Below, piece after piece: positions 1,176 to 23,179 of a stretch of 32,000 nt of DNA. The notes under the pieces are model-generated. The model was not told the DNA's origin. It saw only the letters and a program-made list of their open reading frames with translations, and ran no database searches. The DNA is from Promethearchaeota archaeon (GTDB lineage: Archaea > Asgardarchaeota > Lokiarchaeia > Sigyniarchaeales > Promethearchaeaceae), in NCBI GenBank assembly GCA_016933055.1, contig JAFGBS010000028.1, positions 210,001 through 242,000 on the forward strand, written 5' to 3'. A program made the position numbers and the translations under genes. How positions within the stretch are numbered: the stretch's first letter is position 1; every line of letters begins with the position of its first letter.

Positions 1176-1790
1176 GTGATGATCATGGAAGATTTAGGTA
1201 ATTTATCTTATAATAATGGAAAAAAATGCCTAGTTGTCTCCAAAAAAATCATCATCTTAGGAGAAGGGGGTACAGGTAAAACAACCTTGCTCCTTCGATA
1301 TACTACAGGAAAGTTTTCTGAAGATACAAAAATGACAGTTGGTTCGGACTTTTTTGTGAAGAAAATTAAGTTTGAACACGGCAATTGCGATGTATATTTG
1401 AAACTCTTGTTATGGGATTTTGCAGGGGAAGCACGATTTCGCTTCTTGTTAAGCGATTATACACGGGGAAGCGATATAATATTAGTTGCTTTTGATTTAT
1501 CGCGTATGAAATCTATTTATCATCTTGTAGATTGGATGGAAGTACTTGAATCGGCTCGAACCTACCAAAATAAAACACCTATCTACTTGATTGGAAATAA
1601 ATACGATCTAGTGCAAAAATATCAAGAACCTGATTATGAGTATATTAATAAATGGATTCATGATTATCACGTATCCAAATATTTTGAAACCTCTTCTAGA
1701 ACTGGATATAATGTTGAAGAATTGTTTTGTGATATCACCCGTACTTTAATCGAAAATTCCAAACAAAAAGCTTCATTCTTATGGATATAA
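1176..1790 (+). CDS. Rab-like (Ras superfamily) small GTPase
   Basis: G1 GEGGTGKT, G2 MTVG, G3 WDFAGE, RabF-like RFRFL, G4 GNKYD, G5 ETSS; no C-terminal Cys motif. Confidence 0.93.
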   Translation: MMIMEDLGNLSYNNGKKCLVVSKKIIILGEGGTGKTTLLLRYTTGKFSEDTKMTVGSDFFVKKIKFEHGNCDVYLKLLLWDFAGEARFRFLLSDYTRGSDIILVAFDLSRMKSIYHLVDWMEVLESARTYQNKTPIYLIGNKYDLVQKYQEPDYEYINKWIHDYHVSKYFETSSRTGYNVEELFCDITRTLIENSKQKASFLWI

Positions 1791-5370: not shown

Positions 5371-6369
5371 ATGGTATTAAAAGCTCCCAAGAAGATTAAA
5401 ATCGAGGATGAAGAAATTTCTCGAAAATATAAGATTATTGCTGAAAACTTACATAAAACCTATCTGTTAGGCAAAACTGCAGTTGCAGCTTTACGTGGTG
5501 TGGATGTGCAGATAAAAGAAGCTGAATTTATCGGACTCTACGGACCTTCTGGATCGGGAAAAACCACCCTTTTAAACTTAATAGGTGGTTTGGACTACCC
5601 TACGAGAGGAAAGATATTTCTTGATGGGATAAACATGGCAAAATTAGACGATAATGAGCTTGCTGACCTAAGAAGGGATCACATTGGCTATGTTTTTCAG
5701 TTCTATAATTTACTCCCACTGCTAACAGCTTTAGAAAATGTCATGATTCCTCTACATTTCCAAGCAAAATTAAGTAAAAGAGGGAAAGCACGAAAAGCAA
5801 TGGAACTTTTACGTCTTGTAAAACTTGATGAACGAGCAAATCACACTCCAAGTGAACTATCGGGAGGAGAACAACAGCGGGTGGCGATTGCACGCGCCTT
5901 TGCGAATGATCCCTCCATTGTCATTTTAGATGAACCGACAGGTGATTTAGATTCGAAAACTGGAATTGAAATACTTAATTTGCTACGTGATCTTAATCGA
6001 AAGGGAGCAACATTTGTTACAGCCACTCATGATGGGGCCGTCTCAGAATATTGTTCTCGTGTATTACACCTAATGGATGGCAAGATCGTAACGGGTTCAA
6101 AAGCAGAAGGATTGAAAGAAACTCCTCAACAAAGGAAAACCCGACTTGAACATCAGCAAACGAATCGACAATTAGTGGAAGAAAAGATATTAAAAACCAT
6201 TGAAGGAAAAGATCAAATCAGTATTGAACGATTACGTGCAGGGATTCCCTCTGAATTAATGGAACATCTCCCCATCCACTTTGATGACATTATTCAAGAA
6301 TTAATTGATAATGAAAAAATCAAGGGAGAACTCGATAAGGGTGTTCTTTTTATTCAAAAAGAAGGATAA
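5371..6369 (+). CDS. MacB/LolD-type (type VII) ABC ATPase with a C-terminal PCI-like winged-helix extension
   Basis: Walker A GPSGSGKT, Q-loop GYVFQFYNL, signature LSGGEQQRV, Walker B IVILDEPTG, H-loop ATHD; about 92 extra C-terminal residues. Confidence 0.93.
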   Translation: MVLKAPKKIKIEDEEISRKYKIIAENLHKTYLLGKTAVAALRGVDVQIKEAEFIGLYGPSGSGKTTLLNLIGGLDYPTRGKIFLDGINMAKLDDNELADLRRDHIGYVFQFYNLLPLLTALENVMIPLHFQAKLSKRGKARKAMELLRLVKLDERANHTPSELSGGEQQRVAIARAFANDPSIVILDEPTGDLDSKTGIEILNLLRDLNRKGATFVTATHDGAVSEYCSRVLHLMDGKIVTGSKAEGLKETPQQRKTRLEHQQTNRQLVEEKILKTIEGKDQISIERLRAGIPSELMEHLPIHFDDIIQELIDNEKIKGELDKGVLFIQKEG

Positions 6370-6399: not shown

Positions 6400-9237
6400 A
6401 TGAACATAATTGCCTATGCATTCAAAGATCTAAAAACTCAAAAATTTCGAGCAATATTAGGAGTAGTCGGAGTAGCGGTCAGCATTTTTCTTCTAACTTC
6501 AGTTTCCTTCTTGACTGATGCTGTTTCTTCTGCCTATGTGGATTATCTTGTCACAGATGCAGGGGGAATGGATGCCACTGTAAGTTATCGATGGCTTGAT
6601 GGATACACCGACAGCACCTTTGGTTCAGAGTACAATTTCAGTTATAATGAATTAATTGAAAAAATCGAGGTCGAAACCGATCAAATCGAGCATTATATTC
6701 CGAGATATCGGCAATGGCATTATTTTTATACTTCTAGATGGGGTTGGCGAGGCACAGAAATGGTGGGATTGAATATTTCGTATGAAGAAGAAATTGGATT
6801 TGGAAAATTCTTAAATACGGGATATGATTTCGTTACTCATGGTATTCCAGAGGGATATTGCGCCATATCATCCAAAATGGCCGAAGAATGGGAAATATTT
6901 GTTGGTGATTCATTCCGATTATATTGGTGGGAATGGGTTCCCGAGCAATACTGGCTCTCTCATTATTATGATTTAACTATCTTATCAGTTTTTGATCATC
7001 TATTGAAATTTCCCACTTGGATGGAGGAAATAGTGGTGGTTGATCTTTCAAGCATTCCCACTTACTTTAATAACAGTTATGGAGGGATGGAAGGTCGAGT
7101 TAATCATTTGCATATGACTTTTAAAAATTCCCAGAGCTTATATGATGTTCGAGATATCCAAGGATCGGAACGTGCTGTTGAGTCCATTGGTGCAAAAATT
7201 CAGACTGCTTTAGGGTATGGCTACTGGGTGGATTTACCAAAATTGACTAGTTTGGGTGACGCAGAATATCTGTCCATTGGGACTCGAATTATATTTATTT
7301 TTATAAGTCTTATCTCTATGTTAATTTCAGGAATTTTAATTAATGGGATCCTTTCAACTTCCGTTGAGGAAAAGATTCGAGAATTCGGCATATTCCGAAC
7401 ATTAGGTGCTCGGAAAAATTTCAATCTGAAATTAGTGATCGTTCAAGGTCTTCTAATTTGCGTTACAGGCACCACAATAGGGATTTTTTTATCTTGGTTA
7501 GGCGTATCACAAATTTTACTACCTCTATCTACGAGATGGATACCCTCTGAGATATTATCAAGTCCTATTCAATTCGTATTAAGACCAACAACATTGTTGA
7601 TTTCTTATGCGATAGGAATTGGAGTTTCTCTTGTGGTTTCTCTCTCACCAGCCATAAAAGTAATGCGATTGCAAATAGTAGAAGCAATTAATCCTTACAG
7701 ACATGAGGAATCCGTCTATAAATTAGTCAAAGAAGAGACTGTGAATGTAAGATTAATAATAATCGGATTGATTCTTGCCATAAATGGAGGATTAATCTTC
7801 TTCTTCCTACCACGTCTGATTGTGACATTGAATTTTTCTTTACTATCGACTATACTAATAATCGTACTCCTAGCTTTTCTTGTGGGGTTAACAATGGCGG
7901 GAATTGGTCTAATGCCCCTTCTTTTACGATTTTGGATAGCCATATTGAGACCTTTTGCACGGAAATTAATTGCGATAATAAGAGTAACAATTTTTCGTCA
8001 TGAAAGGCGAAATTCTTCTACAATTTTGATGTTTTGTTTATCGTTTTCCTTTGTATTATTTGCATCTAGTATGGTAGAAATTCAAAACGTTCAAGTAGGT
8101 GCTCTAATCCAGACTGAATTGGGGTCTCCATTAGTAATTCGTCGAGCAGGACATTCCCGTGCTATAACTACGGACTTCCAAGAGGAATTGATGCAGATTG
8201 AGGGCATAGAACGCAGTAGTGTTGTACTAGCTCATCCTGAATTACTTAAATCAATATATGCCTATGGAGAGGATGTTTATTATGATGCGGAAATTGGAGA
8301 TTACATAAACTTGAAATCAAGTGATATTCGATTATATGCTCTTGATAAATATTATGTAGACACAATTTACACTGAATATATTCAAATGTCTCGGGGGACA
8401 ATTAAAACAAGCTTTCCGGCCCTATTTAATGGAAATAACACATGCATTATTTCGACTGCTTTAAGCGAAGATTTATCTCTCAATTTGTATGATACTGTTC
8501 GATTGACCTTTATACGAGGCGATGAAACAACACAAGCTGAATTTGAAATTGTTGGTATAGCTAGTTTATTACCTGGCTTAGATCGATTCAAGGGTAGTTC
8601 TATTTTTGGAGGAGCTGATGGAGTTGCAATATCACATGAAAAATATCTTGAATATATGGAAATTCCAAAACCAGCATGGGCTTGGAGGATATTTGTCAGT
8701 GTTCGCGAAGATATGATTTCTCAAACACAAATGATTGAAGAAAAAATAGACGAGACTCTCTATGGAAAATGGACTTTTGGAACATATAATGTTCAAAATC
8801 TTGTACAGGAAGTGGAACGCGGTTTTCTTACAGTTCAAATTGTTCTTCAAATAATTTTATCCTTTACGATAGTGATTTGCATGTTTGGATTATTTGCAAG
8901 TTCTTATTCAAGTATTTTAGAGCGTAAACGTGAAATAGGAATTTTGCGTGCATTGGGTTTAAGAAGGGAAGGAGTTAGTAGATTATTCACTGTAGAATCC
9001 GTAGTTATATTACTAGCTAGTGGATCCACGGGAACAATAGTGGGATTTTCTACAGCAGCATTATTATCACAAAATTTGTCAATTTTCGCCCAATCACCAA
9101 GATTACTGAGTTTTCCTACTTTGACAACACTAATTTTATTTGCAGTTAGTTTGGTCGTCCTTTTGGTAGGAATGATGGCTATCCTTAGAAAAATTAAAAG
9201 AAAAAACTTGATGGAAATTTTTCGGGAGACACAATAA
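6400..9237 (+). CDS. FtsX/MacB-type ABC permease 1 (two fused permease modules)
   Basis: N-terminal TM followed by a large extracellular domain, repeated twice; motifs VEEKIREFGIFRTLGA and ILERKREIGILRALGL. Confidence 0.9.
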   Translation: MNIIAYAFKDLKTQKFRAILGVVGVAVSIFLLTSVSFLTDAVSSAYVDYLVTDAGGMDATVSYRWLDGYTDSTFGSEYNFSYNELIEKIEVETDQIEHYIPRYRQWHYFYTSRWGWRGTEMVGLNISYEEEIGFGKFLNTGYDFVTHGIPEGYCAISSKMAEEWEIFVGDSFRLYWWEWVPEQYWLSHYYDLTILSVFDHLLKFPTWMEEIVVVDLSSIPTYFNNSYGGMEGRVNHLHMTFKNSQSLYDVRDIQGSERAVESIGAKIQTALGYGYWVDLPKLTSLGDAEYLSIGTRIIFIFISLISMLISGILINGILSTSVEEKIREFGIFRTLGARKNFNLKLVIVQGLLICVTGTTIGIFLSWLGVSQILLPLSTRWIPSEILSSPIQFVLRPTTLLISYAIGIGVSLVVSLSPAIKVMRLQIVEAINPYRHEESVYKLVKEETVNVRLIIIGLILAINGGLIFFFLPRLIVTLNFSLLSTILIIVLLAFLVGLTMAGIGLMPLLLRFWIAILRPFARKLIAIIRVTIFRHERRNSSTILMFCLSFSFVLFASSMVEIQNVQVGALIQTELGSPLVIRRAGHSRAITTDFQEELMQIEGIERSSVVLAHPELLKSIYAYGEDVYYDAEIGDYINLKSSDIRLYALDKYYVDTIYTEYIQMSRGTIKTSFPALFNGNNTCIISTALSEDLSLNLYDTVRLTFIRGDETTQAEFEIVGIASLLPGLDRFKGSSIFGGADGVAISHEKYLEYMEIPKPAWAWRIFVSVREDMISQTQMIEEKIDETLYGKWTFGTYNVQNLVQEVERGFLTVQIVLQIILSFTIVICMFGLFASSYSSILERKREIGILRALGLRREGVSRLFTVESVVILLASGSTGTIVGFSTAALLSQNLSIFAQSPRLLSFPTLTTLILFAVSLVVLLVGMMAILRKIKRKNLMEIFRETQ

Positions 9238-12200
9238 TGATGAATATATATTCCCTAACAAAAAAAATTCGAAAATGCATTCAGCTAGTAATTGTATTCA
9301 GTTTTATTTCGTTAATTATGTTCTCTCCTGAGCTCCCTTTCATATCATTATCTGTAAATGATACACCTCAACTACAAAGTCCGTATAGTTCCGATGTGGC
9401 GGGTTCTGAAATGTATAGTGAACAATTATCTGCCTATATTGCCGGAAATGCGTCAATAATAAAACAAGGATATATTACGAACGATTCAAATATTTTGCGA
9501 GGATTTGATTATAGTGATCCAGCTTTTCATGAATGCTCGGTTTTAATCGCTTTATCAAATGGGATTACCCCCCAAATTTTCCCGAATCCGTTCAGTTCAA
9601 GTGCTTTCGGTTCGGAAAAATTCTTAACTTATGATTCTTTTTACGGTTTTCTATACTATGAATCTGCGACGGGTTCAGGAAAAGCAATAGCAGATCGCGC
9701 AAGTCGTGCTCTAAATATAATTGAAAACCTCTTTAATATCCAGCTTTTCATGCTTGATACCTTTAGTAAGAATCGATTTTATCCATTTTTTGGTTTTTAT
9801 CCAAATTGGGATGATTTATTTGAGTTAATCATAAATAATGCTCCACAAGATGGATATTGGGGTGCTATTGATTCCGCAAGATTATTGAGTAAAGAATATA
9901 TGACAAAAAGTCATCTCAGTTCGTATATTTTGATGTTAGATTCCGTGAACACCCTTTCATCTGGATTCGATTTCCCCGTTGAATTTGAAAAATTTGAAAT
10001 TGATCACATATCCACCTCCTTCGCTGATGTATCCGAAATCTCCAATATTTTCAGTAGTGTCTTTGATTTCTTGAACCTAACCAGTGGGGTGTTTTCTATG
10101 TTCGATACATCACAATTATTGAGGGGAGATTCTAAAATCATTACCACTATTTTACAATACGAGGGTTTAGAACAAGGAATACAACGCATTTCAGAAAATG
10201 AATATAATTTTGATCTACTGCGAGCACTAAATTATAATTCTTCAGAAAGGGGATCCCTTAGCCCTAGTAAAAAAATATACATTTCATTAGTAGGAGCTTT
10301 ATTATCGGAAATTGATATTTCTATCTATTCCTCAGATATTTTAGGATTTACTCCTCTTTATCATAACTTTTCCAGTTACATATTGGATTCCATTGAAGAA
10401 GCTGCATTTCTACTCGGTCAGAATATCGATATTTCCATAATTTCTGATTATTCTCTAAGAACATTTTGGCATACAGATGATGACGTCAATCGCATCGTTA
10501 CAAATTTATATGATCATGCGACTATAGAAAATCCGTTGAATTTAATAACGACCTTAAGCTTAACAGGTTTGCCCGTTATACCAACGGGTATTTTAGAACC
10601 CTTAAAAGAATTCATAATTCGATACGCAATTAATTCGACCGAGCCAATATTACGGATAGAAAAGGATTATCGGTTTATTTCTTATGAGACCGGTGAATAT
10701 GAAATAGATATAAAAGTAACGAACGAAGGGGATATCCCCGCATGGGGGCGTAAAATCGAATTACCGATTTTAAATCAAACCTTTTTGCCAATCCCTACTG
10801 TTATCACAGATTTTATCGAATTGCAATATGGAATGACAGCAGAAGAATTTCTTATACCAGAAGAACCACCCAGATTCATTTTCATAGATTCTTTAGGATC
10901 AGGTGTATTCGATTATCTTTATCCATCAATAACTAATTTTTCGCAACTCACCTTTTATAATCCTCAATTAGCTGAAGACATTTTAGCTCCGAGTAATGAT
11001 GATTATTTTAATTCTTCGGGAGTATCACAAGAAGAACGGCAACTATTAGCAGAATTGTTCAATCAATCATCCAGCATATTTAATCAGGACAATTGGAAAT
11101 TAAATCCAGGGGAATCTATTACTTACACACTTAGCGGCTTATCCAATGAAGCTTTCTTCGATTATTCCAGTTTTTATGATTTGAATTTCACCATAACGGG
11201 GGATAATTTAGAACCATATCTTTCTTATGGTCAATCAATCCTCCCTAGCGAACCATCCTATGCTAGAATAGAAGATGGACTTACTTGGGATATCCTTTCT
11301 GAACAAATTGGTCAAGATAACCTCATTCAAATATTTTTTTCATTTGAGAATACTACACTCATTGATTTCTACAATTTTTCTTTGGACCAAATAGGCTTGA
11401 ATTTCGAATTTACCTCTAATTTAGAACTTTCTATGGACACTCAGTTTACCTTAGAATTCTTTAATACTACGGATATGACGTTCCAATTAATACAAAATTC
11501 TCTTTATAGTGCAACAAACACGAGTGTCGAATTTAACACACCATCTAATCTGCTAGATTATATAGATCCCGCGAATAATTATCAAAGTATCTTTAAATTG
11601 ACGTTCAAAACAGAACTCCCACAAATTTTGTCGATTGATAGCCTAATCGTTCAATTTATTGATAGAGATTTGGATATTATCATGCAATCTCCCGCAAGAG
11701 TAGCGTATACGACTTATACAGGACATAATACATATTTTATTGATTCCAATCCCATTACGGCTGTTACAGATCCAGCACCCATATTGATTGCTACTTCAAC
11801 TTTAGATCATTATAGTTCTGCTCCGGGAATATTAAATACCTATAATTTAACAATCGAGAATGTGGGAGGTCTACAAGCGAATCAGGTAAATGTTACTCTA
11901 AAAGCACCTGGCATAATAGCAGATTCAGGTAATTTTACTCTTGAGAATGGATACCTCTTGTACGAATATCCCAATATTAGTGTTGGGAATTCAATTCAAA
12001 ATCTTAGCTTCAGTTTTTATACTCCTAATAGTTATAATCTCCCCCTTGCTGAAGTTGAGTACAATCATCCCATCACATTATTGAACCTAACTGATTCAGA
12101 TTTCACCACCTATACCAACGATCTGTTCATTTCCGCTCCTATTGATTATTTAACTCGGTACCCCTTTTTGTATGTATTGAAACTTTACTATAAAAGTAAT

Positions 12201-13091
12201 TATACAAATGCAGATACTGCATTTGGACTAGCACCTCAAGTAGGGGATATAATCCGGTTAGATATGGTAATTGAAAATACCGGTCCAATTACTCTTTCAG
12301 ATTTTAATTGCTCGATTCCAAATAATGTGATTGGATTTAAAAGAATGGATAATACTACAGTTCAATTTGCAAACATACAAAAAACAATCAACCAGACATT
12401 TTCTACAGAATTAAAAAAAACATACTGGGATTCTATTTTATTTCCTAATATAGATAGCTTCAATTCAAGTCAGAAATTCTCTATTCAGTTTGCACAAAAA
12501 TTTCCAATTGTATTGGGCTTTAAGAATTTTGAAATACAAAAAACATTCTCAGATTATGATGGAGTACAAAATTCCATTGTAACTGTGCAAATAAATGTCA
12601 CAAATACCGGAAATTTAAAAGTATACGATATGACCGTGATTGATTTTGCGGGATATCCAAAAGAAGGCTTTTCACTTGTAAACGGTACCCCTGATAAACT
12701 CATATCCTCACTTACTCCTGGTGAGTCTTTCATTTACACATATTCATTAAAACTCAATAAACAAGGCATCTATGAAATTAATCCCGCATCTCTCTCTTAT
12801 CGCTATATTACCACTCAAACTGCTTACAGCAGTGTTTTTCAGGTTAAGGTTCGCAATGTTTGGGTTGTAAATGCGCTTTATGTGATACTGCCAAGTTTAA
12901 TAGGAGGAATGACAGTTGGCTTGATTTATTGGTCTAAAAAAAGGTATGATTTAGAAGCAGCTGAATTTTCCCGAAGAGAGGAATTGATGTTTGGTCAAAA
13001 TCTCCGCTCAGTAGCTTGGAATAAAAGAACTCTTCAAGAAGATCTCCTAGATACTGAAGATTTAAAAACAAAGGGGGAGGATACTTTTTGA
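9237..13091 (+). CDS. Large membrane-anchored surface protein (1284 aa) with several DUF11/CARDB-like Ig domains and a TRAP-beta-like C-terminal domain
   Basis: N-terminal hydrophobic segment; recurring I.V.N.G Ig-like strands (IKVTNEG, LTIENVG, MVIENTG, INVTNTG); many N-x-S/T sequons; C-terminal TM plus a roughly 50-aa cytosolic tail. The ATG overlaps the previous stop (TAATG). Confidence 0.8.
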   Translation: MMNIYSLTKKIRKCIQLVIVFSFISLIMFSPELPFISLSVNDTPQLQSPYSSDVAGSEMYSEQLSAYIAGNASIIKQGYITNDSNILRGFDYSDPAFHECSVLIALSNGITPQIFPNPFSSSAFGSEKFLTYDSFYGFLYYESATGSGKAIADRASRALNIIENLFNIQLFMLDTFSKNRFYPFFGFYPNWDDLFELIINNAPQDGYWGAIDSARLLSKEYMTKSHLSSYILMLDSVNTLSSGFDFPVEFEKFEIDHISTSFADVSEISNIFSSVFDFLNLTSGVFSMFDTSQLLRGDSKIITTILQYEGLEQGIQRISENEYNFDLLRALNYNSSERGSLSPSKKIYISLVGALLSEIDISIYSSDILGFTPLYHNFSSYILDSIEEAAFLLGQNIDISIISDYSLRTFWHTDDDVNRIVTNLYDHATIENPLNLITTLSLTGLPVIPTGILEPLKEFIIRYAINSTEPILRIEKDYRFISYETGEYEIDIKVTNEGDIPAWGRKIELPILNQTFLPIPTVITDFIELQYGMTAEEFLIPEEPPRFIFIDSLGSGVFDYLYPSITNFSQLTFYNPQLAEDILAPSNDDYFNSSGVSQEERQLLAELFNQSSSIFNQDNWKLNPGESITYTLSGLSNEAFFDYSSFYDLNFTITGDNLEPYLSYGQSILPSEPSYARIEDGLTWDILSEQIGQDNLIQIFFSFENTTLIDFYNFSLDQIGLNFEFTSNLELSMDTQFTLEFFNTTDMTFQLIQNSLYSATNTSVEFNTPSNLLDYIDPANNYQSIFKLTFKTELPQILSIDSLIVQFIDRDLDIIMQSPARVAYTTYTGHNTYFIDSNPITAVTDPAPILIATSTLDHYSSAPGILNTYNLTIENVGGLQANQVNVTLKAPGIIADSGNFTLENGYLLYEYPNISVGNSIQNLSFSFYTPNSYNLPLAEVEYNHPITLLNLTDSDFTTYTNDLFISAPIDYLTRYPFLYVLKLYYKSNYTNADTAFGLAPQVGDIIRLDMVIENTGPITLSDFNCSIPNNVIGFKRMDNTTVQFANIQKTINQTFSTELKKTYWDSILFPNIDSFNSSQKFSIQFAQKFPIVLGFKNFEIQKTFSDYDGVQNSIVTVQINVTNTGNLKVYDMTVIDFAGYPKEGFSLVNGTPDKLISSLTPGESFIYTYSLKLNKQGIYEINPASLSYRYITTQTAYSSVFQVKVRNVWVVNALYVILPSLIGGMTVGLIYWSKKRYDLEAAEFSRREELMFGQNLRSVAWNKRTLQEDLLDTEDLKTKGEDTF

Positions 13092-16000
13092 AAAGCATTA
13101 AAAGATCTCACCAATTCGTTCTTGGATTAAGTTTCACAATATTAATGATTACGGCCATTGCGAATACTCAATTATATGAAAATACGATTTACATAGGAAA
13201 TGAATTTCGAGATCCTCCTTCCTCCCAGATGAATTATATAAAAGACCAATTACATCTCGATCCTTATATTTGGAATACCCTTGGATTTTCAGGAGATCCC
13301 AATGCATCCATCGTAATAATTGGTTCTGGTATTGATTTTAGGCACCCGAAATTTGGCTACGATTCATTCGGAGATAAGGATTTCAACAAAAAAATCATAG
13401 GGTGGAAAGATTATGTGAACATTTCCAATTTGGAACCTGTCGATCCTCATGGATTGAGTACCTTTACAGCAATATCGGCATTTGGAAATAATGATTCCAA
13501 TTCAAAAATTTACTTAGATAGTGAAAACCGAACTTCTATTACTTTGGGCAGTAAATATGAGCAACAAAATCTATTTCCCACAGATCCTGGACCTGGGTGG
13601 TTTAATATAAAATTAGGATCATTGTGTATAGACCAAATAAATGCCAACATCACTCTGAACGCCACATATTCAGAATATAGCACAAATTTCATCCAAAATG
13701 CCAGTTTTCAAATAAAATCAGGAAATACCGTGCTAAATCAGACTATTGAAGATCTACATGGGATTTATAGAAACCTTAGTTATACCACGGAAATTCAACC
13801 CGCAATTTATGACTTTTACTTTCGATATTACTTGAAATTTTCAAGCCCCGCAAATTTTTCTGTGAATGCAATTATAAAAGCACCCTTAGAAAATGGAACA
13901 GATTACTCGGGAATTGCACCTCAAACAAAAATTATTGGATTACGTATATTGAATGAAAAATTAGAGGGAAACGTATCATCTTTAGTTTCCGCCTTAAATT
14001 GGGCAAAAATTAATCGTGATGATTATCATATTATTGGAATTCAAGTTGATTTGGGTGATTATGAATGGGATGTTTCTGCAACTATCCTCTCAGACGTTAT
14101 TGAGAGCGTAATAGAAAGTGGAATCATGTTATTCCTACCAGCGGGAGACAGTGGTGTAAAAACAAATGCTCTTAATCCTCTGGTCGTAAGTGAATACCCT
14201 ATTGTTGTAGGTTCTGTCAGCGATATTGGAAAACTGACATTTTATACATCACTTGGGCAAGAAATTTCTACTAACCATAAAAAAATCGACATTCTTGCGC
14301 CAGGTGGTAGTTATCTTGCTGGACATCGAACAATTATTTCAGCTGATACAAACGCAAATGATGCCTTAGGATATTTACAGGATCAAAGTATCAATGATTC
14401 TACATCCATAATTAGTACTTCTATCAGTACAGGATTTGTTACTGCGGCATATAGCTTATTAGTCGAAGCCTTGGGAGGTTATATGGTCTGGGAAAGCCTG
14501 CGAACCATAAATACAACATTAGCATTAAAATCTCGTTTATTAATGACAGCGACAGAATTGAATCAAGCAAGAGAAGACAATCCCTACACAACTGCAGTTG
14601 ATGAGAGCTCGACTATTTTTTCACCAAATATAGATCGGGGATTAAAGGATACTATAGAAGGATTTGGATTACTCAATATTCCTGCAGCTCTTGAAAGTAT
14701 CTTATTTGAAATTATGATGGATAGTCAAGTTACGGATCACCTTGTTTCTGCCCCAATTAATATTACAGGCTTGCATAGTTTTGCCCGGAGAATACAATTA
14801 AACCAAAATGAATACTATAATTTTACTCTCAATTTCTCGAATTCTTCCGATCTTGATCTATATATATATCAAAATCGTTCCGATTTGTTCGGAGACCCGA
14901 TTTTAATACAAAAATCCACTTCAAGTGGGAATATTAACGAATCTATTGTTTTCGGATTAGAACAAGATTCTGGAGAATATATTTTAGTAATTAAGTCAAT
15001 TGATGGAAATTTAACGAAATTCGAATTAAACGTGACTAATTTACCAAACCTAAATGCACCAACTCTTACAGATCATTCAGTGGCTGGGATTCAAGGATAC
15101 AACGACACTTTGGATACCTTTGAATTCATGATTAACTATACTGATTTAGATAATCTACCACCAATAACGATAGATCTCAATATTACGGGTGTTTTTGAAT
15201 TGATTCCATTTATAAAAGTTTCAATGGATATGAATTACACTGATGGCTGCTTATATTCAGCAAGATTTCATTTCTACGAGACGGGAACATACCATTATCA
15301 CATAATTGCTTGGGATGGAATAAACTTAGTTAGAACTCCTGAACTAGTAGAATACAATTTAACAGTAGTTCCAATAAAAAATGCTGTATACAACAATTAT
15401 AGCTGGTTCTTTTCCTCGATGGGTGATTGGGAGAAAGAGGGTTATTGGAACAACATCTCTCAATCCAATGAAATCGATCCCCGAGGAATAATGGGACAAA
15501 ATTGGAACGCATTATACTTTGGGGATACGGATTCCGCTTATTTGGGAAAATATTCTTACGAAAGTGTGCCAGAATTGAGTGTATCAAGAGCCTATTCCCC
15601 ACAATTTTGGTTAAATGCAAGTTCCAATCCAATTCTTCGACTAGGAACGCGAATTAGTATAAATCAAGGCGATTTCTTTATCTTAAACATCCGCTTAAAT
15701 AGAACGGGTTCGTGGACCACAATTGATTCATTCAGTAACTCTGAAACTGAATGGAGATTGTTAAAATATGATTTATCAGCATATGTTTCATCATATGTTC
15801 AATTTCAACTGGTAGTAGAATTAGATTTATTAGATGATATTGAGTACAATAAGGGTATTTTACTTAGTGAATTCACTCTATTACAACAACATCCTGTTAA
15901 CATCAATCCAACTTTGATTTTTAATGCCACTGTAACCCCAGATGAAGGTCCTATATATCAAAATTATCGTTTTTCTGTTATTGTCGGAGATAAAGACGGA

Positions 16001-17494
16001 GAAACTCCGGATATGGTGTATTTAGAGATAGATCAAATCAATTATACGATGTTTAATATATATGGTGATTTTGATAGTACATATGAGTTGGATAATGGAA
16101 CCTTAGAATCAGGAGGAATCATATATGCGTATGACATATTTCTCGCTGCTGTTCGCAATTCCACTTTCCGCATCCATGTAGTAGCCAATAGTTACAGTAT
16201 GACAACGGAATTTTTCGCCGGACCACAATTAAGCATACATACCACTTCCTCTTTTCCTTATTATGGAATTCCGTCCAATATGAGCGTATATGGTAATCCT
16301 CAACCTCATCCTCAAACAATATGGGTAAGTTCTAGTAATTCCCTCCACTATATTGCTCGAGATGAGGTTTGGTATTTTGGTGAAAAATACTACTTTGGAT
16401 ATGGAGAGAACTGGAATGTATATATGGTAACATCCCTAATTCGTATTCCGCGTTCTACTGAAGAAACCGATCGAGTTTACTTATGGTTTGAACATCAATT
16501 AAGGTTTGATACACTTTTTCCCCAATTATTTGGGGATGATTATGCACAAATAATGATTTCCCCGGATTTCGGATCTCATTGGTATGAACTCATAACATAT
16601 GATGAAAATGTGAATCAATATCAAAGTCAAAAAATTGATTTGTGGAATTATAGAGGAATGGATGTGCTCATTCGTTTTAACTTTCATTCCGATGATACTA
16701 GTTTTCTACCAACGTTCCAGACGGGATGGTATGTACGAAATATTATGGTAAATGTGGATCTATCTTTAGATAAAGAACCCCCTACCGTAATTTTCACCAA
16801 TATTATACCGAATATGGAAGTTAATGAAACATTTACTATTGAAATATATATTACGGATCCCTCAGGAGTGGATGATAGTTTAGTTACACTTTTCATTAAT
16901 ACAATTATTATAGACGATGCAGTTTCTGAAGATGGAGTAATCCTGTATGATTTAGATACAACTAAATTTCGAAATGGAAATACCACAATTTCAGTTTTAG
17001 CGTATGATGAGGTGGGGAACAAGATCATTGAAACCACTTATATTATTATAAAAAATGAAGGCTCTCCAATGGTGTGGATTTATATAATAATAGGGGTCAC
17101 AATTGCTCTAATTGCAGGAATTTTATATTTCTATTTTCAAGTATTCGTACCCTCTCAAAGGAAGAAAGAACTACGTCAAGAGATGTTATCGGAAGAACAA
17201 CAAAGAAGATTGATGGAAGAACTGAGAGAGCGTCAAGTGACAGAAATGAGAATTCGAGAAGAAACAGAACTAGCTACTCCAGAATCTGAGGCGTTGAAAT
17301 CTTTTACATATGAATGCAGAAGATGCAGGAAACAATTTCAAAATCAAGACTATATTTGGTCAATGATTTGTCCCGATTGTAAAACGGATACCTTAAATTT
17401 GGTATACCAGTGTAAATTATGCGGAAAAATCTATTATGAAGATATGCCGGGAGAATATTTCTGTAAAGATTGTAATATCAAATTATTAAAATAA
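13088..17494 (+). CDS. Single-pass membrane protein: degenerate S8 subtilase domain, PPC-like, MAM/cleaved-adhesin-like and Ig-like domains, TM helix, coiled coil and double zinc ribbon
   Basis: Subtilase scaffold motifs IIGSGIDFRHP, YSGIAP.TKII.LRIL, AGDSG, IVVGSV, DILAPGG, STSIS, LLMTA, GFGLLNI; TM at about 17069-17149; C-terminal CRRC, CPDC, CKLC, CKDC. TTG start overlaps the previous stop, with a GGAGG RBS. Confidence 0.85.
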   Translation: MKSIKRSHQFVLGLSFTILMITAIANTQLYENTIYIGNEFRDPPSSQMNYIKDQLHLDPYIWNTLGFSGDPNASIVIIGSGIDFRHPKFGYDSFGDKDFNKKIIGWKDYVNISNLEPVDPHGLSTFTAISAFGNNDSNSKIYLDSENRTSITLGSKYEQQNLFPTDPGPGWFNIKLGSLCIDQINANITLNATYSEYSTNFIQNASFQIKSGNTVLNQTIEDLHGIYRNLSYTTEIQPAIYDFYFRYYLKFSSPANFSVNAIIKAPLENGTDYSGIAPQTKIIGLRILNEKLEGNVSSLVSALNWAKINRDDYHIIGIQVDLGDYEWDVSATILSDVIESVIESGIMLFLPAGDSGVKTNALNPLVVSEYPIVVGSVSDIGKLTFYTSLGQEISTNHKKIDILAPGGSYLAGHRTIISADTNANDALGYLQDQSINDSTSIISTSISTGFVTAAYSLLVEALGGYMVWESLRTINTTLALKSRLLMTATELNQAREDNPYTTAVDESSTIFSPNIDRGLKDTIEGFGLLNIPAALESILFEIMMDSQVTDHLVSAPINITGLHSFARRIQLNQNEYYNFTLNFSNSSDLDLYIYQNRSDLFGDPILIQKSTSSGNINESIVFGLEQDSGEYILVIKSIDGNLTKFELNVTNLPNLNAPTLTDHSVAGIQGYNDTLDTFEFMINYTDLDNLPPITIDLNITGVFELIPFIKVSMDMNYTDGCLYSARFHFYETGTYHYHIIAWDGINLVRTPELVEYNLTVVPIKNAVYNNYSWFFSSMGDWEKEGYWNNISQSNEIDPRGIMGQNWNALYFGDTDSAYLGKYSYESVPELSVSRAYSPQFWLNASSNPILRLGTRISINQGDFFILNIRLNRTGSWTTIDSFSNSETEWRLLKYDLSAYVSSYVQFQLVVELDLLDDIEYNKGILLSEFTLLQQHPVNINPTLIFNATVTPDEGPIYQNYRFSVIVGDKDGETPDMVYLEIDQINYTMFNIYGDFDSTYELDNGTLESGGIIYAYDIFLAAVRNSTFRIHVVANSYSMTTEFFAGPQLSIHTTSSFPYYGIPSNMSVYGNPQPHPQTIWVSSSNSLHYIARDEVWYFGEKYYFGYGENWNVYMVTSLIRIPRSTEETDRVYLWFEHQLRFDTLFPQLFGDDYAQIMISPDFGSHWYELITYDENVNQYQSQKIDLWNYRGMDVLIRFNFHSDDTSFLPTFQTGWYVRNIMVNVDLSLDKEPPTVIFTNIIPNMEVNETFTIEIYITDPSGVDDSLVTLFINTIIIDDAVSEDGVILYDLDTTKFRNGNTTISVLAYDEVGNKIIETTYIIIKNEGSPMVWIYIIIGVTIALIAGILYFYFQVFVPSQRKKELRQEMLSEEQQRRLMEELRERQVTEMRIREETELATPESEALKSFTYECRRCRKQFQNQDYIWSMICPDCKTDTLNLVYQCKLCGKIYYEDMPGEYFCKDCNIKLLK

Positions 17495-17509: not shown

Positions 17510-20422
17510 ATGAACACATTTCAATTTGCATGGAGAGATTTTAAAAAGCAGAAATTGAAGAGCATTTTCGCAATCTTAGGGGTAATGATAGCAATTTTTC
17601 TGCTCACAGCAATTGGAATGTTAATCGATTCTCTAAGTTATAGTTTTTTGGATGTAGCTACGGCTCAATCTGGGAGTTCCGATCTTATAATTACGAAATC
17701 AATATCTCCAGATTTAACTTTTAATCCTTATATGAATCACAGCTATATTGAATCTACTGCTGATATTGAGGAAATTGATAATTACTATCCTCGAATTTTA
17801 AATTTCATTGATATGGAAACCAAACAAACGATAGATGATCCTACAAGAGTAATGTTTTACGCCATAAATAGCACACTTGAACAAGAATCTGGAAAAATGG
17901 GAGATCTAATTTTATGCGATCCCATCACATTAGAAGAGACCGGGGAGATTTATGATAATCCTATACCTGAAGGTCGTGTGATAATTTTGAAGAATACTGC
18001 AAAAATATACTCTCTCTCTGTAGGGGATTGGATGATTCTCACTTACACCCGATACAGCATAAATGTCACAGTAGATGCAGTATGTGTTCAGAAACTCAAA
18101 TTCAGTGCCGTGGAATCCAACTTAGTTATTATGGAACTGGAACAAGCTCAATCGTTCTTAGATAAACCTAACGAAGCAAATTACATAATGGCTACATTCA
18201 AAAATCCCGGAAGAATTTATGATACTCGGAACATCGAAGCAACTACAACAAGAATCCGTGATATCGGAGAAAAAATCCAACGGGTAATCGGATTTGAATA
18301 TATAATTTCTGCTCCAAAATTATCAGAAGTCGAAAATTCCGAGTTCATGACAACACTCATGAATACCATGATGATTTTTGTTTCCATAGTTGCAATGTTA
18401 ATCAGTGGAATACTAATAAATTCAATTCTAACTACATCAATAGAAGAAAGAATTAGAGAATTTGGAATAATGCGTGTGGTTGGGAGTAAAAAACGTGAAA
18501 ACATGCAGATCGTGCTTTATCAAGGAATATTAATAGCAATCTTTGGAACTACTGCGGGAGTGGCTATTGGAATCGCTTCCGTACCCTTCTGGTTATGGTT
18601 GATCTCCTCCCTTTCGGTGATATGGTCCAAAGGAATTCCGATGATATGGAATTTCCAAACCATCATACAAAGTATAGTTGTTGGGATAGTCGTAACTGTA
18701 GCAATATCATTACTCCCGGCATTGAAAGCGGGAAAAATCGAAATTTCTAGTGCTGTCGATCCATACAGAAGAGATCAACACCAGAAATATAAACTCAAGA
18801 AAGAAGGATCGTCCAATTTCCGTATTATGTTAATTGGTATAGCTGTGAGTACTGCAGGATTGCTTGTTTTCATTTTTCTACCTCGACTATTGCTTGCAGA
18901 AGATCTTATTCTCGTTTTATCTCTTTTTATTACGTTACTCTTGGCAATTTTGATTGGTTTAGTTTTTGCGTTGGTTGGGATAGTTCCAGCAATCGAATGG
19001 GTAATTGTACATATTTTTAAACCCTTTATTAGTAAAATATTCCCAATTGTGCAATTGGGTTTAAAACGAAATCGAAGACGTAATCAAGGAAATATTTTAC
19101 TATTTTCCTTAAGTTTCTCTTTTATTTTCTTTTTCAGTACATTCATCGTTATGCGAGCACAAATTACTACGAATAGTCTCGAAAATACTTATGGTTCAGA
19201 TCTGGTTCTTATCAATCAAGGTTCGGAAGCGACAAGAGATAATGTAGATTTTAATTTATATGATCAAGTTTCACAGACTATCGGAATAAAAAGTACTGCA
19301 CCTTTAATGTACAATACCATTGATTTGACGGAGATAATATCTGTACTTGTTACTGCGTTGGAACAAGGTGTAGATCCCGAATCTATTGCGGAGTCATTCC
19401 GGAGGATTTTTAGTATTAATAAAATAGAGACTTATATTGGCTCAATCACATTTAATAAATATGTGGAATGTGGGTTATTTGGAGTAAATCAAGAGTACGT
19501 AGATATTTCTAATAATGATTTCTTCATTTGGGATAAATCCTCTGGTTCAAACGACAATAGCTTTAAACAAATATTCGATACATCACGCAATGATACAATT
19601 ATTATTTCAAAAAATATAGCGGAATACATTGGAGTGACTGAGATTGGAGATCAAGTCAGAATGGTGTTTGCAGAACCTGGAAAAGAGAATCAAAATACTG
19701 GGAAAGCAATCACATTCACAGTTGCCGGAATATCAGCAGGGATGCCGGGAATTTGGAATTTTGGAAGTTCTCAAGCGAGTATATGGGGGGCGGGAGTAAT
19801 GATGTCGATAGAAAATTACGTAAAATACATATATCCTAATGAACCTTTAACTCAAGCAACTCCGATTGATAAAATTCTGATCAACTTAGAGGACACTTCT
19901 ACTGAAAGTATTAATGATGCGAAAACTTTGATAACGGATCTTTATGGAACAAATTATCGAATTTTAGTCGATGATAATGTGTCTAAAATTAAATTATTCA
20001 CTCAAAATGACCAAGTTATCGACATTATTATGCAAGTACTATTGATTTTAACCATTATTATTGCTTTATTTGGATTGATATCAACAATGTATTCTTCATT
20101 ATTAGAGAGAATGTTTGAAGTTGGATTATTGCGTGCAATGGGATTACAAAAAAATGATGTACGAAAAATTTTCATATTTGAAAGCTTATCAATGATGTTA
20201 TCTTCTGGGACAATGGGCACAATAGTTGGTACATTTATTGCTTATCAAATGATTGCCAATGTAGCGATATTATTAGAGACACCGGTAGTATTTGTGTTTT
20301 CAACTGCTGCCTTTCTGCGAACTTACCTCCTTTCCATAAGTATCTGTATAGTGGGAGTACTTTTTATTACTCGAAGAGTATCTCAATGGAGTATTATGGA
20401 AATATTTCGAAAGACGTTCTAA
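17510..20422 (+). CDS. FtsX/MacB-type ABC permease 2 (two fused modules; paralog of 6400..9237)
   Basis: Same layout and motifs as permease 1: IEERIREFGIMRVVGS, LLERMFEVGLLRAMGL, C-terminal MEIFR; RBS GAAGGAG. Confidence 0.9.
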   Translation: MNTFQFAWRDFKKQKLKSIFAILGVMIAIFLLTAIGMLIDSLSYSFLDVATAQSGSSDLIITKSISPDLTFNPYMNHSYIESTADIEEIDNYYPRILNFIDMETKQTIDDPTRVMFYAINSTLEQESGKMGDLILCDPITLEETGEIYDNPIPEGRVIILKNTAKIYSLSVGDWMILTYTRYSINVTVDAVCVQKLKFSAVESNLVIMELEQAQSFLDKPNEANYIMATFKNPGRIYDTRNIEATTTRIRDIGEKIQRVIGFEYIISAPKLSEVENSEFMTTLMNTMMIFVSIVAMLISGILINSILTTSIEERIREFGIMRVVGSKKRENMQIVLYQGILIAIFGTTAGVAIGIASVPFWLWLISSLSVIWSKGIPMIWNFQTIIQSIVVGIVVTVAISLLPALKAGKIEISSAVDPYRRDQHQKYKLKKEGSSNFRIMLIGIAVSTAGLLVFIFLPRLLLAEDLILVLSLFITLLLAILIGLVFALVGIVPAIEWVIVHIFKPFISKIFPIVQLGLKRNRRRNQGNILLFSLSFSFIFFFSTFIVMRAQITTNSLENTYGSDLVLINQGSEATRDNVDFNLYDQVSQTIGIKSTAPLMYNTIDLTEIISVLVTALEQGVDPESIAESFRRIFSINKIETYIGSITFNKYVECGLFGVNQEYVDISNNDFFIWDKSSGSNDNSFKQIFDTSRNDTIIISKNIAEYIGVTEIGDQVRMVFAEPGKENQNTGKAITFTVAGISAGMPGIWNFGSSQASIWGAGVMMSIENYVKYIYPNEPLTQATPIDKILINLEDTSTESINDAKTLITDLYGTNYRILVDDNVSKIKLFTQNDQVIDIIMQVLLILTIIIALFGLISTMYSSLLERMFEVGLLRAMGLQKNDVRKIFIFESLSMMLSSGTMGTIVGTFIAYQMIANVAILLETPVVFVFSTAAFLRTYLLSISICIVGVLFITRRVSQWSIMEIFRKTF

Positions 20423-22023
20423 TTTGTTTTTCGCCCTTTTATCTTATTTTTATAGATAATGAATAATGCCAAACTTGGTATTATTATGATTAAAAATATG
20501 TTATATCCAGGGACTTTATTATCAGGAGGATCTGGTAAATCAACTAATACAACTCGAGGATTTGAAATTTCCGATTCAATACCTTTCACTATGCATGTAA
20601 CTACATAGAAATAAGTCCCCTCCTCCATACCAGTTTCGATTAAGCTATTACTGGTTAAAATTTTATAAGGTATTCTACCAGAAATATCAAGGATGGGATG
20701 AATATCCCGATATAAATGATATCCTTCACTTTCAGGAAAATATTGCCAGTTGAGATAATATGTCCCGTTTAAACTTGGATTGGGTTCTATTGGAGTAAAA
20801 TAAGGCGCTGGTGGTGTGCTATAAGAATAAAATTTAAGCAAATATAGGTCGTAATCACCTGAAATCTCTGCACTTCCATTATACCCCCCGCATACATATA
20901 AATAATTATTATAAGCAAATATTGATTTAGGAATATAATGATAATCATCATTCCATTTGGGATAACTTGTTTCTACTAAAATTCCATTATAACTATATTT
21001 AGCTAGCACAACTTTTTCATATTCAGCCTCCCTACCCAACGTTGTACCACAAACAAAGACATAAAACTCATTAGCCCAAATAGAATATGCCTTATCCTCT
21101 TCTGGTAAGCTCCAAATTTGATACCATAATTCATTTCCATCAGAATCCCACTTCATTATAAGCATATCGGTAGTCAAATCTGTCTCATTCCAAATATTAC
21201 CGCAAAAATACAAACTTGTATCAAATCCAAACATTGATGTGTAATACTCTTCATAAGGTGTACCCCACGAGCGATTCCACAATTGGTTTCCATCAGAATC
21301 CCATTTTACTATCAAGGTATCATTTAGTCCCGAACCATAACTAGACGTACTTCCGCAGGTATATATTTCATTATTTATACCCCAAACATCAATTCCTTCT
21401 TCCCAATTTCCACCACCCCAAGTTCGGTTCCATATTTGGGAACCATAATCATCCCATTTGATTAATAGGAGATCATGTGAATATACACCGCTAAGATAAA
21501 TTTCATTTTCAATACCCCAAACTGAATGGGCAACCCCATAATTCCCTCCCAAATACCAAGTTGTATTCCAAATTTGATTACCCTCGGAATCCCATTTTAT
21601 CAAAACCAAGTTATCACTGGAAGTTCCTGCAGTATATATAAAATAACTATTGCTCCATACGGCATTTCCATAAACACCCATACCAATAGTCCATGTCACA
21701 TTCCAATCTTGATATCCTCCACCCCATTCACTATATCTAGCTAAAATTAACTTGGGATTCGTTGTATCTGCATCCAAGGTTCCGCAAACATATATATAAT
21801 ATTGATCTGCCCATACATCTTGCGCGAAATCTAAATTGGACCCCCCCCAAGAGGTTTCCCATAAAAGATAGGTGGGGTCTGCCAAGGGAAGATTTATAGA
21901 GCTTATATCAGGTGAAACAGATGGTAACAGAAGTGTTTCATCCATCGGACTTGTTAAGGCTATGATAAAAATCATCAATGAAATTAAACTGAAAAAAAAG
22001 TATAAGCGATTCTTCCGATTCAT
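20419..22023 (-). CDS. Surface beta-propeller repeat protein with an FN3-like domain and a Loki-CTERM-type anchor
   Basis: N-terminal signal/TM; 5-6 repeats of L.KWD.DGNQ.WN.TWG; FN3-like segment LNW....GY.LYR..GTYFYVVT; ends VPGYN followed by a TM helix and a basic tail. Confidence 0.85.
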   Translation of the reverse strand: MNRKNRLYFFFSLISLMIFIIALTSPMDETLLLPSVSPDISSINLPLADPTYLLWETSWGGSNLDFAQDVWADQYYIYVCGTLDADTTNPKLILARYSEWGGGYQDWNVTWTIGMGVYGNAVWSNSYFIYTAGTSSDNLVLIKWDSEGNQIWNTTWYLGGNYGVAHSVWGIENEIYLSGVYSHDLLLIKWDDYGSQIWNRTWGGGNWEEGIDVWGINNEIYTCGSTSSYGSGLNDTLIVKWDSDGNQLWNRSWGTPYEEYYTSMFGFDTSLYFCGNIWNETDLTTDMLIMKWDSDGNELWYQIWSLPEEDKAYSIWANEFYVFVCGTTLGREAEYEKVVLAKYSYNGILVETSYPKWNDDYHYIPKSIFAYNNYLYVCGGYNGSAEISGDYDLYLLKFYSYSTPPAPYFTPIEPNPSLNGTYYLNWQYFPESEGYHLYRDIHPILDISGRIPYKILTSNSLIETGMEEGTYFYVVTCIVKGIESEISNPRVVLVDLPDPPDNKVPGYNIFLIIIIPSLALFIIYKNKIKGRKTN

Positions 22024-22243: not shown

Positions 22244-23179
22244 ATGTATGATACAAACACAGATAAATACTCAAGATTTCTGATTGTCAGTGATGTACAT
22301 GGTTTAGTCAAGGAATTCACTCAATTCCTCGCTCTAATGCAAAAAAAATACAATGACACTATACGATATTGCGTACAATTAGGGGACTTCTTTAAAGGCA
22401 GGAATGTGATTCGCAATAAAAAAACTTATTCATTTTGGAAGGATACATCAATTTTCAAGGAATTTCCATTTCCAATTTTTAGCGTGAAAGGAAATGAGGA
22501 TATTAATATCCCTGAATCATGGTGGAGTGGGGGTATGCTGAGTCTACTTCCAAATTTAACTGAATTCCAGTTGGATAGATTTAATTCCATCCCATTGCAT
22601 TATTTTGAAGAAGATGGAGAGAAAATCCGTGAATTGGGAGTGGGAAAATTGATTCGTCTAAATATGCCACGAAAGAGACATAAAGATGAATATTATCCCA
22701 TGTTTAATTGTACGTACGAAAAGAACTCACCTATAGCTCCTATTTTAGAATCAGATAGACCCGTTGATTTCATGTTATCCCATGTTCCACCATATGGCTT
22801 ATTAGATAGAACGAGAGACGCAATAACACATAAACACATTCGCAATACAGGGAGTAAATTACTTCGTCTTATCATCGATAAAAGACACCCTCAAGTTATT
22901 TTTTTTGGTCACAACCATTATTGTAATTACAAATTCTTTGGTGAGATGTTAGTAATTTCTGTCGATAAATTCTGTAGAAAAATGCCTTACGAATTCTCTT
23001 CAACTAATGAATACTCTACAATTACAAAAAAAGTTGATTCAGAAGAAGAGGTCAATGGATTTAGTTATTGTGTTGTTACCGAAAAAGAAGAATCTTATCT
23101 AATTGAAATATATCGTAGAAATCAATTAGTCTTTCAGTATGATATGTTACAACAAAATATCTTATACTCAGCGTTCTGA
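22244..23179 (+). CDS. Calcineurin-like metallophosphoesterase
   Basis: Motifs SDVHG, LGDFF, KGNED, LSHVPP, FGHNH. Confidence 0.88.
   Translation: MYDTNTDKYSRFLIVSDVHGLVKEFTQFLALMQKKYNDTIRYCVQLGDFFKGRNVIRNKKTYSFWKDTSIFKEFPFPIFSVKGNEDINIPESWWSGGMLSLLPNLTEFQLDRFNSIPLHYFEEDGEKIRELGVGKLIRLNMPRKRHKDEYYPMFNCTYEKNSPIAPILESDRPVDFMLSHVPPYGLLDRTRDAITHKHIRNTGSKLLRLIIDKRHPQVIFFGHNHYCNYKFFGEMLVISVDKFCRKMPYEFSSTNEYSTITKKVDSEEEVNGFSYCVVTEKEESYLIEIYRRNQLVFQYDMLQQNILYSAF

Follow-up and report, generated by a model that had tools for sequence, protein, structure and literature searches.

The 32,000-nucleotide stretch analyzed here (the window) comes from the genome of a Promethearchaeota archaeon of the Lokiarchaeia (contig JAFGBS010000028.1, positions 210,001 to 242,000) and carries, at 13088-17494 on the forward strand, an open reading frame (ORF) for a homolog of the S8 subtilases of whose catalytic triad only the serine is left. 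Judged by its active-site residues, the product is a true pseudoprotease, a subtilase fold that should no longer be capable of Asp-His-Ser catalysis. The loss of the triad is monophyletic, with a single origin, and the purifying selection that acts on the dead protease domain equals that on the intact orthologs. The protein probably serves, without proteolysis, as a binding or scaffold subunit in an envelope machine that is Lokiarchaeia-wide and built on an ATP-binding cassette (ABC) system of type VII, a reading to which we would give a probability of roughly 0.6. Pseudoenzymes among the subtilases are already known, as are roles of membrane subtilases that do not depend on protease activity; an archaeal, membrane-anchored, zinc-ribbon-tailed pseudosubtilase fixed in a type VII ABC cassette is new, and no description of the cassette or of the S8 protein was found in the literature searched.

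Fold and active site of the subtilase homolog

Both profile and fold place the ORF in the S8 family. The Pfam profile PF00082 (Peptidase_S8) covers residues 265-500 only (43.1 bits against a cut-off of 21.8), and in a phmmer search against PDB sequences the entry 3afg (Tk-SP) lines up directly, at its Asp and His motifs, with residues 61-135. An AlphaFold2 (AF2) model of residues 28-560, with a mean predicted local distance difference test score (pLDDT) of 77.9 and a predicted TM-score (pTM) of 0.84, matches subtilisins in Foldseek at TM-scores of 0.80-0.85. The comparison of the model with Tk-SP in VIA gives a Z of 37.5 (root-mean-square deviation 2.5 Å, 296 residues, 29% identity), and MycP3, MycP5, CspA, CspC, PCSK9 and the sedolisins stand lower in the same list. 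The active-site columns were read in a MAFFT alignment of 36 sequences and in a later alignment with 40 relatives, and they fall as follows.

13265..13492 (+): N-terminal part of the S8 domain, in which the Asp motif (Gly79) and the His motif (Leu123) have degenerated, from phmmer and the alignments
13322-13324 (+): GGT, Gly79 in the Asp column (MAFFT; D in every intact relative)
13454-13456 (+): TTG, Leu123 in the His column (MAFFT; H in every intact relative)
13880..14707 (+): S8 core with Asp354 and the retained Ser445, from PF00082 over 265-500 and the VIA match to Tk-SP (Z 37.5)
14147-14149 (+): GAC, Asp354 in the oxyanion-Asn column (MAFFT; N in every intact relative)
14420-14422 (+): TCT, Ser445 retained in the Ser column (MAFFT; S in every intact relative)

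The residue numbers given for these four positions in an earlier note on this DNA, which had been made from the letters of the window, are correct in the 36-sequence alignment and, for the Asp and His positions, in the phmmer alignment to 3afg. Of the Asp-His-Ser triad that marks an active S8 enzyme, Ser445 is the sole member kept. The oxyanion-hole Asn, which is present in 31/31 and 80/80 intact relatives, is replaced by Asp354, and this Asp is invariant in the clade of triad-less (dead) forms described below. The active site of the dead forms has eroded further, with the Gly of the G-T-S motif changed to Ser and the Ser of S-L-G changed to Asp, and comparison of the sequences found no clade-specific conserved His or Glu substitute at or near the catalytic motifs. 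The invariant changes that are specific to the clade comprise N354D, S128A, G135N, W465Y and I480L together with Glu196, which lies in a loop of an insert that follows the His helix.

A mechanism of the sedolisin (S53) type was considered but does not agree with the residues. Sedolisins use a Ser-Glu-Asp triad, in which Glu takes the place of the His and Asp follows one turn of the helix later, while a further Asp occupies the oxyanion hole. Of these residues the dead forms have the oxyanion Asp, but no acidic residue is found in the His column or within four positions after it in any of them.

The gene itself shows no sign of damage. Its frame is open throughout its 1468 codons, the start codon is a TTG with a 4-nt overlap into the end of the upstream (TRAP-beta-like) gene, and a Shine-Dalgarno-like run, GGGGGAGG, precedes it. 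Upstream of this start just 10 further codons are open, and thus no pro-region is hidden there. The GC content of coding sequence in the window is 34% (AT-rich), and the closest relatives of the S8 protein are annotated in Lokiarchaeota/Promethearchaeota metagenome-assembled genomes. No RNA sequencing run is listed for the window, and two metatranscriptomes, probably from the source study, share almost no sequence words with it, a result that carries no information on expression.

Single origin of the triad loss and selection on the dead domain

The dead pattern was found in seven independent assemblies from different studies (six database proteins, P0001 and P0003-P0007, and one species genome, L013; 41-72% identity) and consists of G (S once) at the Asp position, L or Q at the His position, D at the oxyanion Asn and a retained Ser; all other relatives in the alignments read D/H/N/S. 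Since the same set of substitutions is seen in seven independent assemblies, neither chance nor assembly error can be its source. Pseudogene decay is rejected as well, because the frame is intact in all seven and dN/dS is low, and the earlier statement that an open frame of this length is not decaying therefore holds. In a maximum-likelihood tree of 41 sequences, the dead forms make up one clade (SH-aLRT 100), and a single change accounts for their distribution. The catalytic columns of 110 species representatives are intact (D/H/N/S) in 107 and dead in three (G000, G131 and G143), with no independent loss of the triad in the other 107.

Within the dead clade, nonsynonymous divergence (dN) is 0.16-0.24 and synonymous divergence (dS) is at least 1.5; as dS is saturated, the resulting omega of at most ~0.1-0.15 is an upper-bound estimate. 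The protease domain, at a dN of 0.16-0.21, compares with 0.21-0.24 for the stalk that follows it. Protease-domain dN divided by the dN of the 460 residues that follow gives 0.63-0.97 for pairs of dead forms and 0.67-1.06 for pairs of intact ones, a similarity which indicates that the dead domain has not been relaxed. In addition, 49 positions of the protease domain that are invariant in the dead clade are also at least 90% identical in intact forms. The alignment of orthologs that the earlier note had proposed as a check on its pseudoenzyme call thus comes out in favor of that call, with the loss of triad and oxyanion Asn conserved in a monophyletic clade under purifying selection. The finding that it had named as contrary, orthologs in the same operon that keep D/H/S, was formally made too, in distant orthologs of at most 37% identity. 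Activity is not thereby shown; the presence of intact distant orthologs in the same operon means that the triad loss is derived and specific to the clade.

Three changes occur jointly in the dead clade, namely in the catalytic residues, in the pro-region and in a C-terminal extension beyond the zinc ribbons. The mature domain is preceded by 43-78 residues in dead forms and by 110-214 in intact relatives, and the ~90-100 aa that separate signal segment and mature domain in all intact relatives are found in no dead form. In the window S8 protein, ~33 residues lead from the signal segment to the start of the mature domain, compared with ~135 in the intact P0008. It therefore lacks the N-terminal pro-region that is removed by autoprocessing, in agreement with the earlier remark that no propeptide was obvious. 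Pfam found no Inhibitor_I9 or other propeptide family in the N-terminal regions of the intact relatives, so that their pro-region is assigned from position and length only. At the other end, the dead forms stop at ..LLK right after the ribbons, whereas the intact forms extend 30-60 aa further.

The five-gene cassette and a probable non-proteolytic role

The S8 gene is the fourth of five genes that together encode a type VII ABC system and two giant ectoproteins.

5371..6369 (+): gene 1, ABC ATPase, 332 aa, LolD/MacB/FtsE-like (Pfam ABC_tran 6e-36; top NCBIfam matches LolD, MacB, FtsE)
6400..9237 (+): gene 2, permease A with a duplicated FtsX domain, 945 aa (Pfam FtsX x2, 2e-27; NCBIfam LolCE/MacB/ADOP)
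9237..13091 (+): gene 3, giant single-pass ectoprotein, TRAP-beta/CARDB-like, 1284 aa (Pfam TRAP_beta 1.8e-15)
13088..17494 (+): gene 4, triad-less S8 subtilase homolog, 1468 aa
17510..20422 (+): gene 5, permease B with a duplicated FtsX domain, 970 aa (Pfam FtsX x2, 1.7e-28, MacB_PCD 2e-5; NCBIfam LolCE/MacB/ADOP)

The window has this identical arrangement in common with L001-L004, L006, L007 and L010. The eight loci represent two families of the taxonomic order, and dead (L001, L002, L006, L007) and intact forms (L003, L004, L010) share the arrangement. The S8 gene is thus co-encoded with an FtsE/LolD-like ATPase and FtsX permeases in a conserved operon, as would be expected of a partner of a type VII ABC system. 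The junction between the TRAP-beta-like and S8 genes ranges from an 8-nt overlap to a 2-nt gap across all eight loci, and the fact that the two overlap or abut in every locus suggests that their translation is coupled. When 400 genomes of the phylum were scanned, the family of the window's S8 protein was present in 12/13 and 110/135 genomes of the order's two main families, mostly as a single ORF of ~1600 aa per genome; the gene is close to universal in the order. Compensation by an intact paralog within the cassette can be ruled out, as the genome of the window has one copy of this family, with three unrelated S8 genes elsewhere.

Among the partner proteins, permease A has ~9 hydrophobic segments and two large external loops in a hydropathy scan, and the product of gene 3 has a signal segment, a C-terminal transmembrane (TM) segment and a membrane-proximal TRAP-beta/CARDB-like domain. 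The ATPase carries a conserved C-terminal extension of ~95 aa (residues ~235-332, window 6070-6369) that begins with GLKET. Its orthologs are 57-86% identical, extension included, and typical FtsE and LolD are without it; its sequence pattern suggests a small domain, either helical or of winged-helix type.

Because the dead form keeps both its place in the cassette and the same constraint, a non-proteolytic role of the S8 module is the most economical reading, and the fixed place in a type VII ABC (FtsX/MacB-type) cassette argues for a machine subunit more than for a stand-alone signalling receptor. Such a machine would consist of the LolD/FtsE-like ATPase, the two duplicated FtsX/MacB-type permeases and the two giant single-pass ectoproteins. 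The core job of the S8 module would be to hold something in or near its cleft, for which the TRAP-beta-like partner, an FtsX external domain and a surface polypeptide are candidates, and ATP-driven mechanotransmission by the permeases would act on what is held. The zinc-ribbon tail may tether the protein on the cytosolic side. In the intact orthologs, the triad may be needed at least for removal of the pro-region, and the joint loss of pro-region and triad fits this idea. Deletion of the pro-region in the dead clade could then have made catalysis dispensable with the role of the protein kept, following a logic of the PCSK9/MycP type.

Several considerations weigh against this reading. The S8 protein is linked to the ABC system by cassette membership only, the putative pro-region is recognized by its position and length, and the association of pro-region and triad loss goes back to one evolutionary event. 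A long internal branch (1.08 changes per site) carries the subclade of the window protein, which is compatible with a change of function in that subclade. The full triad is kept in 107/110 species, and thus proteolysis is normally under selection in the family. The role of the dead forms may differ from that of their orthologs and not be a shared "core" role.

Precedents for parts of this arrangement are found in bacteria. MycP is required for the stability of the mycobacterial ESX complex while its protease activity is dispensable (PMC5082899). Like the window protein, it is a subtilase with a C-terminal TM anchor encoded within a membrane-machine operon, and its fold is similar (Z 28.5-30.6; MycP3 4kg7 and MycP5 in 7np7). 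However, MycP is bacterial, keeps its triad, serves ESX and not a type VII ABC system, and has neither a zinc-ribbon tail nor an Ig/jelly-roll stalk. Identity of the window protein as a mycosin was rejected (NCBIfam TIGR03921, 28.1 bits against a cut-off of 278.75), its neighbors being ABC/FtsX and not Ecc genes. CspC and CspA of Clostridioides difficile have the subtilase fold with mutated catalytic residues and have been retained in signal-sensing or regulatory functions (PMC6636752; PMC7200643; PMC12880746). They resemble the window protein in fold (Z 26.0 for CspC 6mw4 and 29.5 for CspA 9pr9), but they are soluble spore proteins that keep a prodomain, neither a TM helix nor a stalk or zinc ribbon is present in them, they belong to no ABC cassette, and their loss of catalysis arose independently, in bacteria. 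A Csp-type pseudoprotease was therefore ruled out for the window protein, which is membrane-anchored, without prodomain and part of an archaeal ABC cassette, with only the generic S8 fold in common.

On the side of the transporter, EnvC is an adaptor of the type VII ABC system FtsEX whose LytM domain is without catalytic residues (PMC7668044), and YbbAP is a type VII ABC transporter that works with the hydrolase TesA (PMC12646458). The likeness to the window is that the genes for an FtsE/LolD-like ATPase and FtsX permease go together with one for an extracytoplasmic partner that has a hydrolase fold. The putative partner in the window differs in that its fold is S8, not M23 or SGNH, and in that it is membrane-anchored with a cytosolic zinc-ribbon tail. 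The cassette, unlike FtsEX and YbbAP, has two duplicated permeases and a second giant ectoprotein, and it belongs to an archaeon without peptidoglycan. The closest solved structure, Tk-SP of Thermococcus kodakarensis (PDB 3afg/9ues; Z 35-37.5, 29% identity), aligns in its Asp and His motifs but is secreted and active as a protease, has its propeptide cleaved off and is without the 130-aa insert, stalk, TM helix and zinc ribbons.

Protein architecture, alternative explanations and neighboring genes

Outside the S8 core, the window protein is composed of the following parts.

13112..13174 (+): putative N-terminal signal/anchor segment, residues 9-29 (hydropathy scan, from sequence only)
13493..13879 (+): beta-sandwich insert after the His helix, ~130 aa, residues 136-264 (alignment; AF2 strands 121-240; VIA)
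14708..17050 (+): ectodomain stalk (AF2 model; Foldseek; weak Pfam matches InhA-like_MAM and Big_7), modeled in order as a PPC-like sandwich 541-652, immunoglobulin (Ig)-like 659-761, jelly-roll 771-932, Ig-like 943-1039, jelly-roll 1065-1223 and Ig-like 1233-1321
17066..17140 (+): TM helix, residues 1327-1351 (hydropathy, AF2 model)
17144..17293 (+): charged long cytosolic helix, residues 1353-1402, ending in acidic ATPESEA (alignment, AF2 model)
17303..17491 (+): tandem (double) zinc ribbon, residues 1406-1468 (four CxxC pairs; two short hairpin units in the AF2 model)

The insert, which the earlier note had put at about 140 aa, is real and slightly shorter, but it is not special to the dead form, as it is also found in intact relatives (Lokiarchaeial and Bathyarchaeial S8). 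Its best matches in VIA are p24-family GOLD domains (Z 10.4 and 8.8, with ~98 of 100 residues in the alignment). Sandwich folds often reach a Z of about 10, and the GOLD likeness is thus only a lead. Pfam returned nothing significant for the insert (residues 125-270) or for residues 540-960. The AF2 model of residues 541-1468 has a mean pLDDT of 84, and Foldseek pairs its stalk with reelin repeats and with RPTPmu's MAM-Ig module, which are generic beta modules of adhesion type. In the ESM Atlas, the top match to residues 541-1330 reached 0.79, under the useful range. The Ig-like unit at residues ~645-755 (window 15020-15350) is a repeat of ~100 aa, of which many of the representative library's giant proteins (1000-6800 aa) contain 4-42 copies, and it matched no Pfam family.

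The TM helix, the long cytosolic helix and the four CxxC pairs (at 1410, 1428, 1442 and 1459) that had been noticed earlier were all recovered, and the eight Cys of the double ribbon are invariant in 23 family members. All Pfam matches of the ribbon (HypA, DUF7129, Zn_ribbon_6, DZR) are under curated cut-offs. The ectodomain has 38 N-x-S/T sequons and the TM helix is followed by K/R-rich residues, with which a predicted outside-in topology fits. Since the insert, TM helix, long helix and double zinc ribbon occur in all intact orthologs, they are ancestral and not adaptations of the dead form.

These features bear on the earlier view that the protein is built like a receptor. As a stand-alone receptor, it would bind an outside peptide or protein in the dead cleft and signal through the TM segment and helix to the zinc ribbons and a cytosolic effector, for example a Rag-like GTPase encoded upstream. 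Its single pass, its large and predictedly glycosylated ectodomain and the strictly conserved cytosolic double ribbon would suit such a role, as would the ATPESEA motif before the ribbons, which is found in the dead clade only, and the absence there of the segment after the ribbon. Subtilase pseudoproteases that act as signal receptors exist in C. difficile CspC/CspA (PMC6636752; PMC12880746). The features are present as claimed, yet the same architecture is found in catalytically intact orthologs and is not tied to the loss of catalysis, no recognizable signalling output domain was found, with the zinc-ribbon matches below curated cut-offs, and the fixed position between two FtsX permeases argues for a machine part.

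The GTPase is a protein of ~500-530 aa with an N-terminal Gtr1/RagA-like domain, encoded directly upstream of the cassette (window 3592-5184 (+); L001 496-2076; L003 266-1780; L010 3-1484; 30-79% identity). It was found in 4/4 loci of the window's family that include upstream sequence, which speaks for the receptor, but the linkage is absent from the order's other main family, where the protein upstream in L004 is unrelated; a linkage of GTPase and cassette across the order is thus not supported. On balance, we consider a stand-alone receptor unlikely.

A more far-reaching version of the machine, which we regard as a long shot, is that the cassette is an undescribed, Lokiarchaeia-specific envelope machine in which a type VII ABC mechanotransducer drives the two ectoproteins, one with a TRAP-beta-like foot and the other with the GOLD-like insert and double zinc ribbon, to remodel or attach the cell surface, in protrusions or partner contact, with the S8 module mainly binding and the zinc-ribbon tail and, in the window's family, the adjacent Rag-like GTPase coupling the machine to eukaryote-like cytosolic regulators.

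The protease module could also be a functionless spacer whose triad was lost neutrally, with the stalk, TM helix and zinc ribbons carrying the role. The stalk and tail are indeed conserved, down to all eight Cys, and a single loss in a small clade is what a rare neutral event would leave. Such a vestigial domain is nonetheless improbable given that, by the dN values above, constraint on the dead protease domain is no weaker than that on the stalk and matches that in the intact orthologs, that 49 positions are still common to dead and intact forms, and that the replacement Asp354 is itself invariant in the clade.

Very doubtful, finally, is a cryptic enzyme in which Ser445 acts as nucleophile with non-canonical partners (sedolisin-like, with Asp354 as oxyanion-hole Asp) or in other chemistry such as transpeptidation or esterolysis: Ser445 is retained in 7/7 dead forms, the oxyanion Asn is Asp in all of them as in the sedolisins (S53, same clan), sedolisin structures are matched at Z 24-25 in VIA and Glu196 of the insert is invariant, but there is no conserved Glu, Asp, His or Lys at the His position (L or Q) or up to four residues after it, mutation has also changed the Gly in front of Thr-Ser as well as the S-L-G Ser, Glu196 sits in a poorly aligned loop beside an N-glycosylation sequon, and the dead forms are without the pro-region that subtilases and sedolisins need for folding.

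Several other genes accompany the cassette. A calcineurin-like metallophosphoesterase (Metallophos; window 22244-23179 (+), also in L001, L003, L006, L007 and L010) lies 0.1-2 kb downstream of permease B in six loci, on either strand, and may be a further conserved neighbor. Between the two, at 20419-22023 (-), the window encodes a 534-aa protein with a signal segment, a C-terminal TM segment and ~8 repeats of the type W..WG / L.KWD..G, which has no Pfam match and from its repeats looks like a beta-propeller; L001 has a 525-aa counterpart in the same place. Upstream, at 3-746 and 1176-1790 (+), are a protein with two RING-like fingers (weak Pfam matches) and a small GTPase of Ras/Roc/Arf-like type, both encoded by "eukaryotic signature" genes of the kind typical for Asgard archaea, and in L001 the same small GTPase adjoins the Rag-like gene. 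An ORF of more than 1853 codons without Pfam match runs off the window at 26440-31998 (+), and L001 has an ORF in the corresponding position whose called product is 3513 aa long.

With this finding, the few known pseudoenzymes of the subtilase type gain an archaeal member that is anchored in the membrane, and the triad-less clade provides a clean evolutionary handle on the role of the S8 module. Catalysis disappeared jointly with the pro-region, and selection still acts on the domain, on the cassette and on the zinc-ribbon tail, which predicts an essential role of the subtilase module that is non-proteolytic. Should the broader idea of a Lokiarchaeia-specific surface machine be true, the dead clade would be a natural experiment indicating that the S8 module works mainly by binding and not by cutting. 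Cultured Lokiarchaeia carry intact orthologs, and the prediction of a non-proteolytic role is directly testable there.

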